DNA of 64,000 nt from Escherichia coli (lineage in GTDB: Bacteria > Pseudomonadota > Gammaproteobacteria > Enterobacterales > Enterobacteriaceae): NCBI RefSeq assembly GCF_024700885.2, contig NZ_CP117016.1; one strand, 5' to 3'. The notes below the pieces were generated by a model. The model worked only from the letters and a program-made list of their open reading frames with translations, was not told where the DNA came from and did not search any database. A program made the position numbers and the translations under genes. Below, in pieces: positions 36,819 through 39,800 of the stretch (positions within the stretch are counted from its first letter, which is position 1; every line of letters begins with the position of its first letter).

Positions 36819-39800
36819 TTAACTTATTAGATCCGCTATTTTCTTTTCTTGATATGCCATCCTTATTATTTCAAATTCATCCATACGCATCATGTAAATA
36901 GATCTTGTCAATACCAAATTTCCATGTTTATCTTCTTTAATTTCATCTGCACCTTCTATTAATTTAATAATCCCAAATTCATTAACTGGAATTGGACAAG
37001 ACTCAATATCAATAGGATAAAAATCACCAGATTCGTTTTCTCTTACCAAAACACTGGTTTCTTCATACGTAATAAGACCATACTTCTTCCAATCAAGACC
37101 AGCTTTTGTAATTGCATCCTTAACTTGCTGCGCTACAACTCCAAAATGATATCTGGCATGTTCACTTCCTTTTCGTAATATTTCATCCTTCATCTTCCAC
37201 ATTTGAAATTTTACACTACCCACGGCTTCAATAAGTTCAGTCGGTATATCCGAGAATTCATCTTTGTAATTAACATCTGAAACAACAGTGACAGCATTCT
37301 TGCTATATATGTTATTCCAGTATGCTGTCGTTGTACCATTATTAACTGTTCCTATCTGCCCTGTGGGAGCAAAATAAGGATTATCATTAACTGGATTAGC
37401 TATCTCGACAAGAACTTGAGTACCGCCAAAGCTCCCGCCAGGGAACATACGAAACCTGTTTGGTAAGCGATAGTCATTAGAACCATAAGCATTCCAGCCA
37501 GCCCCATTTTCTACAGTACCACGACACCTAAATTCAACAACTTCTTGTATCTGCGGTGTTACATCATATCCACCACGTATAGACCAGTACTTATTATTGT
37601 CAGATTCTCTGCGGGAATCATGAACACGAAAAGCACCATTACTAGCATACTGAATGGCTTTTTTATATTCTGAAGTATTTTCTGAATACCCCCCCAATAT
37701 CCAGTTCTCTCCTAATTTAAAGGAAACATCAAAAGCAGAACTTATAGAAGAAAGTGGTGAGTTATTAACACGAGTTGTCAAGGCGGAATTCAATGGTAGT
37801 TCATTAGCAACCCCACGCGATTGTGAAATAAGAAATATCTGTTTTCCTCGTTTCGAATACACTCCATCGCTGTACTTTTTATCATTCGAGTATTCCCCAC
37901 CACTAACTTTATTTGTTATCGCCCACATTCTAAATCCATCGGGATCATCCGGAGCAATACCAGAAGCAGTAGAAAAAGCGGAATAATTCTTTCCTTTGTA
38001 AGTTATAATAGATGCTCCAGAATCCCAATTATCCATAGTTAGAATAATAAGGTCTCCTTCATACATATCTATACCTTCAGGTTCAAATGAATGGGGGGTC
38101 CCATACTTTGGATTATCCATAAGATTTTTGTATCCATAAAGAGAACGAGCCCCCTCAAATGAAAATTCAGCAAGAATATTACCAGAATAATCAAACTTCT
38201 GAATAATATGCAACATGAACGGATGTGTATATCCCCTTAATATATAGATGTACTTACCATCACTGGCAACATCTTGAATAACATGAGTATCAGTTCCGCG
38301 CTGCGGATGTGGAATCCTGAAATAATACAATGGTCTTGCGTCCAAACTATTGTCAAGGGATTCTACGTGTATCCTGCTGTAAACAAATACATACCAGGCA
38401 TCATCATCTGCTGTGCTATCAGTTGCAACAAGAACAACATACCTTCCATCTGAAGATACACACGGGGTTGCTGAATTATAATTCTGATAAGGATGACCAG
38501 AACCAGAATATCCAAAAAGCTGATAAGTAATCACATCAGATTCAGATGTGCTGCTCCCTTTCCAAATTAATTTTGAATAACCTTTTCCTCCATCATTTCC
38601 TCGATATGTAGGCTGGGTAACCATTTGGGTATAAATAAAAAGGTCATCATCAATAACTATCGTAGATATTCCCTGATGGTTATTTAATATTGGTGCAGTG
38701 TAAGTAGTATTTTGCACTACTGAACCATCATCAGAAAACGAGTATTCAACCAGCCTGCGCTTCTCTAAAGCAGCTGCTGTTCCTGTACCAACCCCTGGAC
38801 CATTCGCCGTAAATCGTACACCAATATTATTTTCAGCAGCCCCTATAGTTGTAAAATCAGTTGAACCTATACTTACTATTTCATATTCAATTCCGGTTAT
38901 GAAGTCACCAGCTGATGTTACTTTAGAGTTGAAGTTTCCACTACCTTCAGCACTGCCAACAACCGTTTGTAAAATAAATAATTTTTTACCATTATAATTC
39001 GCATAAGCACACCCTTGACTTGTAGCCTCACCATTTGGAAAAACTTGGGACTCACCAAAACCCATAAATGCTTCCATTAAATGGCGTTGCACCAATGTAT
39101 TACTGATATTATTACGAAGAGAAAGTAGATGACCAGTTTTGGAAAGAATCATCCCTTCCCCTGTCATTTTGCTTACATCTACTTTCAACGTATCAACAAG
39201 ATATACTCCAGGTGGAACATAAGCATTTTCAGGAGCCAGAATAAAAGAATTCGTATCATCAGTTATACCATCTCCAACAGCAGCATAATCTTTCACACTT
39301 ACTGTATCACGCATCTTATCCTGGAACGTTCTGTATACAGCTCCAGCACCATACTGGATAAACCATCCGAAACCACCGACAACACCAGCAATTGCAGCAT
39401 CCACATACTTACGCATTGAACGATTATTTACAGCGTCCTGCTCAAGTGATGGATCTGCAAGGTTAGAAATTTTGTTTTGCTTTGCATCGTAATATTTTGC
39501 AAGCAGCGAGGGCTTCATCAATGCACGTCTGAACCACCCAAAACATCGCTGGATCAGCATCGTCAGGTAGTCGAATGCATCCTCATGAACTTCGGGGAAA
39601 AATTTTCCCTGATTGCGAAGATCAGTCTCCTGCACCACATCAAGCACACGCTCTATCGTAATTCGCCAGCCAGCAGCAAGCGGCGACGGAAGAACCACTT
39701 CACCGCCACTATAAGTGCCCGCTCCAGTTACCTTATAACCGGTATCAAGCACCAATTCTGTTACGTTCCCGTTCAGATCAGACACCTGAACAACCAGGTC

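Follow-up and report, generated by a model that had tools for sequence, protein, structure and literature searches.

A mosaic tailspike precursor of Escherichia coli that very likely ends in a self-cleaving Peptidase_S74 intramolecular chaperone

A probable C-terminal chaperone

The carboxy terminal residues (aa. 872–1024) of a tailspike encoded on the Escherichia coli contig NZ_CP117016.1 very probably constitute a Peptidase_S74 intramolecular chaperone domain (ICD), carried on a precursor that is predicted to cleave itself and whose gene is mosaic at two depths. The gene was identified from the open reading frames of the analysed stretch of 64,000 nucleotides (the window), where it lies at 36819..39893 on the minus strand and encodes a precursor of 1024 aa and 113.6 kDa; every domain, module and motif described below is on the same strand, with the ICD at 36822..37280. 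A self-cleaving chaperone at the C-terminus of a tailspike is a well-known and ordinary kind of domain. Public databases already contain the exact protein, with the generic annotation "tail fiber domain-containing protein" in four near-identical E. coli loci, and its own protein cluster has 90 members.

An initial sequence-only reading of this DNA had suggested a chaperone-like or mosaic module at the C-terminus and proposed a Peptidase_S74 domain search as a check. This search was positive: Pfam PF13884 matches aa. 872–933 with an E-value of 9.6e-9 and a score of 35.9 bits, where the cut-off is 22. A word-indexed search for homologues of the C-terminal 184 aa returned two partial proteins only, and an exhaustive HMMER search was used instead. 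Searched with phmmer against PDB sequences, the ICD matched 6eu4 (E = 2e-22), 9vvr (1e-13), 3gud (8e-12) and 3gw6 (2e-5). The AF2 model of aa. 841–1024, calculated as a monomer, has a pLDDT of 90.9. All 13 Foldseek matches with E <= 0.001 were ICDs (3gw6, 3gud, 4uw8, 7dc3), and the comparison with 3gud gave a TM-score of 0.79, normalised to 3gud. With 153 aa and a position that ends the reading frame, the domain also fits the size and place of an extreme C-terminal ICD of about 120–155 residues.

The fold of the monomer model may be considered in terms of an alpha/beta body, a long beta-hairpin tentacle and a C-terminal helix. The hairpin region (aa. 941–1002; 36888..37073) is delimited by DSSP strands at model residues 101–112, 118–120, 143–147 and 153–162. 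It is called a tentacle by analogy with the ICDs of T5 pb1 and K1F (PMC4690869), and it defines an ICD subtype that is common to Klebsiella fibres. The helix (aa. 1004–1023; 36825..36884; model residues 164–183) is a trimeric coiled-coil element in homologues (PMC8326128, PMC4690869). Among the 71 aligned ICDs, R1003 is conserved in 69 and E1006 in 64, and the ARxHxGxxAQ core is kept.

The adaptor, the central domain and the stalk

Sequence matches identify the N-terminal region (aa. 1–~190; 39324..39893) as a particle-binding adaptor domain of the epsilon15/phiV10 type. It is 66–94% identical to the N-termini of many Escherichia and Salmonella podovirus tailspikes, and more than 15 PHROG families match this part of the protein only. 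Residues 1–212 match the PDB sequence u22074 (example chain 28lx; also 28mg and 8ck1) with an E-value of 1.4e-32.

AF2 and Foldseek analyses both describe the central receptor-binding domain (aa. 200–820; 37434..39296) as a beta-propeller with a C-terminal beta-sandwich (aa. ~730–820). The pLDDT exceeds 90 across most of this region, and the best Foldseek matches were the phage receptor-binding protein (RBP) propellers 9m7x, 5efv and 6iab (E ~1e-9), which are those of phages phi11, P68 and NF5. About 100 homologues of the domain were identified at 23–42% identity. Endosialidases 4hiz and 1v0e matched weakly (Foldseek E = 7e-6 to 2.5e-4), and K1 strains have an endosialidase behind the same N-terminus. 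An endosialidase (GH58) identity was nevertheless not supported, since no Pfam match to the endosialidase catalytic domain was identified and the best folds are the phi11, P68 and NF5 propellers. A pectate-lyase-like beta-helix was also considered on the basis of a weak Pfam match to aa. 198–235 (E = 0.0011, below the cut-off). This match reflects only a short N-cap motif, KDYAAVGDG, and AF2 and Foldseek favor the propeller.

Homologue alignments revealed an inserted module of ~50 aa (aa. 321–377; 38763..38933) that is missing from most of the propeller homologues. In the large proteins P0035, P0099 and P0124 it is found in up to 12 matched stretches. No Pfam family was identified for it in the three multi-copy carriers that were scanned (P0035, P0099, P0125). 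The pLDDT of the module is below 50 and the AF2 model is unreliable there.

The segment between the central domain and the ICD (aa. 821–871; 37281..37433) is a probable pre-cleavage stalk. ICDs of this family directly follow an intertwined trimeric stalk, a triple beta-helix that they help to fold. Its low pLDDT (59–66 in the monomer AF2 model) is as would be expected if the stalk folds only as an intertwined trimer. Conservation of the ICD extends back into the stalk as far as aa. ~841–853, where similarity begins to those proteins that have the ICD alone in common with this tailspike; in the case of 6eu4 and 9vvr the pre-cleavage similarity begins at aa. 848.

Composition and mosaicism

The sequence-only reading had singled out 36819..37400, which corresponds to aa. 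832–1024, and described the last 150 residues as unlike the Gly/Thr/Asn-rich central part. The shift is real. From aa. 210–871 to aa. 872–1024, a Gly/Thr/Asn/Ser-rich sequence gives way to a Lys/Glu/Ile-rich one, with G+T+N+S falling from 34.1% to 17.6% (Fisher p = 4e-5) and K+E+I rising from 14.7% to 31.4% (p = 6e-6). The peptide quoted for it, ARYHFGVVAQQVKDAITKAGLDWKKYGLITYEE, starts at aa. 913 and covers the last 112 residues rather than 150.

The gene does become AT-rich toward its 3' end, as had also been observed. The GC content falls from 0.383 in the central part to 0.329 in the ICD, with 0.287 in the final 50-codon window (from aa. 951). This drop had been taken as consistent with an exchanged module; however, only codon position 2 changes (GC 0.424 to 0.288, p = 0.002), with position 1 (0.473 vs 0.477, p = 0.93) and position 3 (GC3, 0.252 vs 0.222, p = 0.47) flat into the ICD. 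The drop therefore reflects amino-acid content and not a different nucleotide background. AT-richness was thus ruled out as a sign of foreign origin, and it provides no evidence of a separate origin for the module. GC3 does step significantly where the N-terminal and central regions meet, at about aa. 200 (0.426 to 0.252, p = 3e-6).

That the gene is a mosaic, as the same reading proposed, is borne out by database comparisons. No known tailspike was found to match the protein evenly from end to end, no phage record covers at least 80% of the protein, and for the best 25 PHROG families each best match falls within a single tailspike module. The proposed C-terminal boundary fared less well, since the recent breakpoints are elsewhere and the receptor-binding domain and ICD moved together; a boundary just ahead of the ICD (aa. 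~841–853) is seen only in deep comparisons. Prophages that are siblings of this one and occupy the same yfgI site have aa. 1–209 and the 3' flank in common with the present locus, and their alleles encode a different central domain with its own ICD (motif SDARFK). The DNA homology to two of them, PAR and EC0026B, stops at 39267 and resumes at 36851. Together with the GC3 step, this places the 5' junction at aa. ~198–209, at the KDYAAVGDG motif (39267..39300), and the 3' junction at the last 10 codons and stop codon (QEKKIADLIS-stop; 36819..36851). In PAR and EC0026B, the corresponding QEKKIADLIY and stop survive as a non-coding remnant that follows the stop codon of their own tailspike. From these sequence comparisons, the propeller and its own ICD (aa. 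~210–1013) appear to have been swapped recently as a single cassette by epsilon15-like prophages that occupy the yfgI site. Clean breakpoints of a tailspike cassette swap can be read from the locus, which is not new in principle.

The second, older level of mosaicism is suggested by incongruent relationships. Proteins that share the propeller at 23–42% identity have ICD N-terminal parts that are only 25–48% identical, and over aa. 946–1024 no similarity to them could be detected. Conversely, the proteins whose ICDs are 43–69% identical in the N-terminal part and 31–49% in the C-terminal part have no propeller similarity. These identity patterns, drawn from cluster representatives and not from formal phylogenies, indicate that a Klebsiella-type ICD was probably joined at an earlier time to a propeller of the GA-1 gp12/683R2 type, with a junction about aa. 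841–853. The locus may illustrate how ICDs move between receptor-binding domains that are unrelated to one another, again not a new principle.

It is improbable that the last 150 residues were instead acquired separately and recently, independent of the central domain and with a breakpoint at the AT-rich start (aa. ~830–870). The fall in GC and the sharp change in composition would be consistent with such an event, as would the presence of the closest ICDs on proteins with unrelated central domains; yet GC3 and GC1 are flat across the boundary, and the sibling prophages exchange the central domain and ICD together between 39267 and 36851. Furthermore, of 5426 E. coli genomes, the 4 that contain the ICD DNA all have the whole tailspike allele and none has the ICD on another tailspike; nor did the collections searched yield a genome with this ICD, at more than 90% DNA identity, joined to another central domain. 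A search of the 5426 genomes with the ICD DNA (blastn, distant mode) for recent transfer of the ICD alone returned the same four genomes only. As even the nearest ICDs reach only about 50% identity, any separate acquisition of the ICD would be old.

The autocleavage motif

The sequence-only reading could find no clear auto-cleavage motif. One is present within the region it singled out, S872-D-V-N-Y-K877, read from 37280 to 37263 (37263..37280) and identified by alignment to ICD homologues. The motif aligns with the first residues of the released GA-1 gp12 ICD (3gud). In homologues the catalytic dyad is composed of the scissile serine and a lysine five residues on, S911/K916 in endoNF and S1264/K1269 in T5 pb1 (PMC8326128, PMC4690869). 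Here S872 is conserved in 67, D873 in 70 and K877 in 70 of the 71 aligned ICDs. Cleavage at this motif is predicted to release an ICD of 153 aa and 17.7 kDa.

Two features of the site depart from the better known examples. The residue preceding the scissile serine is Val871, where the consensus is threonine (45/71). An upstream arginine, contributed by a neighbouring chain, serves as a "folding sensor" and as an oxyanion-hole element in endoNF (R897) and T5 pb1 (R1250) and is absent in MyRF (PMC8326128). Inspection of aa. 848–871 identified no arginine, K865 being the sole basic residue there, and the closest relative, P0087, is likewise without the sensor. Since MyRF cleaves without a stalk residue, the arginine does not define the family, and cleavage control in the present ICD may, as in MyRF, be different (PMC8326128). 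Should this ICD subtype indeed need no stalk arginine to trigger cleavage, the tailspike would be a phage example of MyRF-like, stalk-independent activation.

Both departures could also be read as signs of a degenerate ICD that is no longer cut off and remains at the distal end of the mature spike, as a cap or a binding domain, and uncleaved S-to-A mutants of homologues do still fold (PMC4690869). Such an outcome is quite unlikely here. The serine, aspartate and lysine of the motif and all of the other near-invariant ICD residues are intact, and valine precedes the serine in 14 of the 71 homologues, among them those most closely related to this ICD subtype. In addition, T5 pb1 blocks infection by competition only when it has been processed, which shows selection for release in T5 pb1 (PMC4690869).

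Relationship to known tailspikes

The neck appendage precursor gp12 of Bacillus phage GA-1 is collinear with both the propeller and the ICD (aa. 258–966 against gp12 127–724, 25.6% identity, E = 2e-73), and the SDxxxK motifs of the two proteins align with each other (S620/K625 with S872/K877). However, the N-terminus of gp12 is a phi29-like collar in place of the epsilon15-like adaptor, its ICD of about 121 aa has a short hairpin region where the 153-aa ICD has a longer beta-hairpin insert, and the GA-1 host, unlike that of the present tailspike, is Gram-positive. The endoNF of coliphage K1F (3GW6) has a similar layout, with an N-terminal adaptor, beta-propeller, stalk and ICD with the Ser/Lys+5 dyad. 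Its ICD is the top Foldseek match (E = 3e-8), while the sequences match at E = 2e-5 and are about 19% identical over the ICD. The present propeller is nearer to the five-bladed RBP type of phi11 and P68 than to the six-bladed sialidase type of endoNF, and the tailspike has neither an evident equivalent of Arg897 nor a sign of sialidase activity.

Among the closest ICDs is that of an Acinetobacter phage tailspike (6EU4), which matches aa. 848–962. Tail fibres of Klebsiella prophages and phages (P0087, P0114; phages Kp4865-1, Croc_ER14 and VLCpiP4a) have ICDs that are about 50% identical over aa. ~848–1020, and this similarity includes the pre-cleavage segment NIYSQNAVTVVSD. The central domains of 6EU4 and the Klebsiella fibres have no detectable similarity to the present propeller, except for aa. 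728–820 in P0087. The opposite is observed for the tailspike of Escherichia phage vB_EcoP-683R2 (Lederbergvirus). Its propeller is alike (aa. 193–812, 32% identity, E = 2e-89), but its N-terminus is of the P22 type and its C-terminus of about 100 aa is unrelated, lacking both an SDxxxK motif and any similarity to S74. T5 pb1 shares the ICD fold (Foldseek E = 2e-7), the Ser/Lys+5 dyad, and the tentacle hairpins with a C-terminal coiled coil (PMC4690869); however, its ICD is about 17% identical and chaperones not a propeller-spike stalk but a "bullet-shaped" domain in a long fibre.

From these comparisons it might be speculated, tentatively, that the ICD is a folding cap that can pass from one protein to another by recombination at its conserved ends, with a Klebsiella-type ICD (no arginine sensor, valine before the scissile serine) having been grafted onto a propeller like those in the RBPs of phages of Gram-positive hosts (GA-1 gp12, phi11, P68). 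If so, the codons of the terminal helix would be the 3' crossover point for exchange of the whole cassette.

Proposed maturation of the spike

From the homologous K1F endosialidase, T5 pb1 and GA-1 gp12, we infer a mechanism of trimerisation, cleavage and release. The C-terminal helices of the ICD (aa. 1004–1023) would form a coiled coil that brings three nascent chains together. The beta-hairpin tentacles (aa. 941–1002) would then embrace the stalk (aa. ~821–871) and template an intertwined trimer. Once the trimer is correctly formed, S872 would be activated by K877 and the V871–S872 bond cut. The 17.7 kDa ICD would be freed, leaving a mature spike of 871 aa and 96 kDa with the beta-propeller as its receptor-binding part. 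Stability of the mature trimer to SDS and heat is characteristic of the family.

The module at the C-terminus had been described as either receptor-binding or chaperone, and it is the chaperone that agrees with PF13884 and the ICD fold, both of which indicate a folding and auto-processing domain. While a distal C-terminus binds the receptor in many fibres, a receptor-binding or lectin tip with the central domain only as scaffold is very improbable, since all sequence and fold evidence puts aa. 872–1024 in the ICD family and it is the central domain that matches receptor-binding propellers.

With the C-terminal region read as a self-cleaving ICD, the precursor should be annotated as a 96 kDa mature beta-propeller spike and an 18 kDa released chaperone with a predicted cleavage at V871|S872. 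Where the RBP is expressed for use as, say, a depolymerase or a reagent for diagnostics, the construct would have to retain the ICD, and processing should be expected.

The 3' end of the locus

A 42-aa open reading frame at 37211..37339 overlaps the tailspike gene on the same strand in another frame and has no support. A terminator scan identified a hairpin at 36775..36799, between the convergent tailspike and acyltransferase genes. It has a 10-bp stem with 5 GC pairs and is conserved in the sibling loci.

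The tailspike and its C-terminal chaperone domain

The C-terminal feature is the 3' end of a 1024-codon tailspike ORF (36819..39893, minus strand), which closes an epsilon15-like podovirus prophage whose insertion adjoins yfgI. The locus is found in four complete E. coli genomes with 99.7–100% identity, each annotating the gene as a 'tail fiber domain-containing protein'. In one of the four, SW070919 (NZ_CM129861.1), the match is in three pieces with an IS3-family transposase annotated beneath. An interruption of the gene there is suggested by a fragment labelled 'head-binding protein' and by a member of the protein's cluster with 825 aa.

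A search against Pfam placed Peptidase_S74 ('chaperone of endosialidase') on aa 872–933 with 35.9 bits against a curated threshold of 22, which bears out an earlier sequence-only reading of a chaperone-like module. When the last 193 residues were searched against the PDB, matches were obtained to the tailspikes 6eu4 (E = 2e-22) and 9vvr (1e-13) and to two chaperones, 3gud as released from GA-1 gp12 (8e-12) and 3gw6 of the K1F endosialidase (2e-5). An AlphaFold2 model of aa 841–1024, calculated from 30 homologues, had a mean pLDDT of 90.9; its 13 PDB matches at E <= 0.001 were all to intramolecular chaperones, namely 3gw6, 3gud, T5 pb1 (4uw8) and MyRF (7dc3), with a TM of 0.79 to 3gud (normalised to 3gud). 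The domain is a folding and auto-processing module and not the receptor-binding module that had been offered as an alternative. The original observation is confirmed and its interpretation supported with four corrections. The intramolecular chaperone domain (ICD) adds a new member to a domain family that has been characterised thoroughly; public databases already list the identical protein under generic names, as part of a cluster of 90 members at 90% identity.

The sequence-only reading had recognized no clear auto-cleavage motif; one is present as S872-D-V-N-Y-K877 (37280..37263, minus strand). In an alignment of 71 ICDs, the Ser, Asp and Lys of S872/D873/K877 are retained in 67, 70 and 70 sequences, respectively, as are an A913-R-x-H-x-G-x-x-A-Q922 core, G932-L-D, Y938-G and R1003/E1006 of the terminal helix. 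A Ser/Lys+5 pair is the catalytic dyad of endoNF, T5 pb1 and MyRF, and cleavage is blocked by Ser-to-Ala substitution in pb1 and MyRF and by Lys-to-Ala in MyRF (PMC8326128, PMC4690869). The tailspike differs from the best-studied ICDs in two respects. Val rather than Thr precedes the scissile Ser (Thr in 45/71 homologues, Val in 14/71), and the 'folding sensor' Arg is missing from aa 848–871, where K865 is the sole basic residue. In MyRF, the dyad can function without a stalk residue (PMC8326128).

By homology, the C-terminal helix (aa 1004–1023) would gather three chains and the β-hairpin region (aa 941–1002) would clasp the upstream stalk during its folding to an intertwined trimer. Next, K877 would activate S872 and the V871–S872 bond would be cut; the predicted products are a freed 18-kDa fragment and a mature 96-kDa spike of 871 residues.

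Composition of the C-terminus

The last 150 residues had been described as unlike the Gly/Thr/Asn-rich centre. The description of composition stands, while the extent does not, as the quoted peptide begins at aa 913 and covers the last 112 residues. G+T+N+S makes up 34.1% of aa 210–871 and 17.6% of aa 872–1024 (Fisher p = 4e-5); for K+E+I the shares are 14.7% and 31.4% (Fisher p = 6e-6). The 3' end is indeed AT-rich, with GC decreasing from 0.383 to 0.329 and reaching 0.287 in the final 50-codon window. Codon position 2 alone carries this fall (0.424 to 0.288, p = 0.002), with no change at positions 1 and 3 between centre and ICD (p = 0.93 and 0.47). The AT-richness thus mirrors, at the nucleotide level, a domain rich in Lys, Glu, Ile and Asp, and was rejected as a signature of foreign DNA or evidence of exchange. 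At synonymous sites, the true step is some 650 codons upstream, with a drop in GC3 from 0.426 (aa 1–209) to 0.252 (p = 3e-6). The acyltransferase gene and tailspike cassette form a low-GC island (35644..39266) in which 200-nt windows are mostly 0.28–0.44 against a window mean of 0.50, a GC-rich SSR being the exception.

A propeller-type spike

In the full-length model (mean pLDDT = 81.6), an N-terminal adaptor with a helical neck that is modelled poorly (aa 1–~190) precedes a central domain modelled with confidence (aa 200–310 and 378–~720), apart from an unmodelled insert (aa 314–370). A β-sandwich (aa ~730–820) and a low-confidence stalk (aa 821–871) then lead to the ICD. The closest solved folds to the central domain, with E ~1e-9, were the receptor-binding protein (RBP) propellers 5efv and 6iab, from Staphylococcus phages phi11 and P68, and 9m7x, from phage NF5. 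Endosialidases and GH43 propellers matched more weakly; a sub-threshold Pfam match to the phage five-bladed propeller platform agrees. The modelled fold therefore identifies the spike as a propeller and not a β-helix type, its receptor-binding domain being a β-propeller at 37434..39296 (aa 200–820, minus strand). Bacillus phage GA-1 gp12 has both propeller and ICD collinear with this tailspike over aa 258–966 (~700 residues, 25.6% identity), so that, with the phi11, P68 and NF5 matches, one RBP architecture occurs in phages of both Gram-positive and Gram-negative hosts.

The propeller domain contains an inserted module of ~50 aa (GDFITGIEYEIVSIGSTDFTTIGAAENNIGVRFTANGPG...; 38763..38933, aa 321–377, minus strand). 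Most propeller homologues lack it, while up to 12 matched stretches occur in the large proteins P0035, P0099, P0109 and P0124. No Pfam family was assigned to it in the three carriers scanned (P0035, P0099, P0125), and its AlphaFold2 pLDDT is below 50. The module may represent a carbohydrate-binding repeat not described before.

Old and recent exchange

An exhaustive HMMER search with aa 200–1024 returned 4809 relatives, of which the best 150 were compared by per-segment BLAST. Among these, about 100 proteins share the propeller (23–42% identity); in those with an ICD, the N-part of that domain is only 25–48% identical and the C-part (aa 946–1024) undetectable. Another 15 have an ICD that is 43–69% identical in its N-part and 31–49% in its C-part, with similarity beginning at aa 841–853 and none to the propeller by per-segment BLAST. 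These closest ICDs come from fibres of Klebsiella prophages and phages. In the P22-like phage 683R2, a similar propeller (aa 193–812, 32%) is followed by a non-S74 C-terminus. For each of the best 25 PHROG families, the top match is confined to one module, and no phage record covers at least 80% of the tailspike. Uniform full-length homology to one tailspike was thus not found, and the mosaic reading holds at the level of sequence, with an old junction placed near aa 841–853.

The sibling prophages of strains PAR and EC0026B occupy the same chromosomal site and have in common with this one the upstream region and aa 1–209 (94–98% DNA identity) and the acyltransferase and lysis flank (about 98.6–98.8%); no DNA similarity to them was detected in 36852–39266. 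The sibling tailspikes, 923 aa long, differ both in the central domain and in the ICD, which is their own and has the motif SDARFK. The 5' junction lies at the KDYAAVGDG motif and the 3' one within the last 10 codons. About 20 nt past the stop codon of their own tailspike gene, both siblings carry CAAGAAAAGAAAATAGCAGATCTAATATATTAA, a non-coding remnant reading QEKKIADLIY* (L001 ~4258..4292, L002 ~4097..4131) that aligns to 36819..36851; judged by this alignment, it is a fossil of the C-terminal end of this ICD and marks the 3' crossover. From these junctions, the receptor-binding domain and ICD were swapped as one unit. Consistent with this, the DNA of this ICD occurs in only 4/5426 E. coli genomes, each with the whole allele. 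The recent breakpoints, at KDYAAVGDG and in the last 10 codons, are not where the sequence-only reading had implied.

The queried region was matched in 531/5426 genomes, most listed matches reaching only the adaptor end. K1 strains CE10, SF-468 and others (matches H22–H25) have the same adaptor and upstream region (~91.6% DNA identity), followed by an 'endosialidase catalytic beta-propeller domain-containing protein'. One adaptor therefore serves many alternative receptor-binding cassettes.

The convergent acyltransferase gene

Downstream of the tailspike are a convergent hexapeptide-repeat acyltransferase gene (35644..36768, plus strand) and a holin/endolysin/DUF2514 lysis cassette. At its 3' end, the acyltransferase gene carries an octanucleotide in perfect repetition, GCACAGCA x 42.8 (36419..36760), with 42 copies here, 43 in MLI114 (locus otherwise 99.9% identical), 22 in PAR and 1 in EC0026B. 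Every frame encodes the same TAAQQHSS peptide repeat. Because a unit of 8 nt does not preserve the reading frame, the C-terminal tail is set by copy number modulo 3, being either TVI*, AAQ* or a ~40-aa read-through that in PAR overlaps the tailspike 3' end. The arrangement is reminiscent of the heptanucleotide phase variation of CUS-3 NeuO, apart from the 3' position of the repeat in this gene. With ~98.6–98.8% DNA identity beside different tailspike alleles, the acyltransferase does not co-vary with spike specificity. Between the two convergent genes, a GC-rich hairpin with a 10-bp stem (36775..36799), kept in the sibling loci, is probably their common bidirectional terminator.
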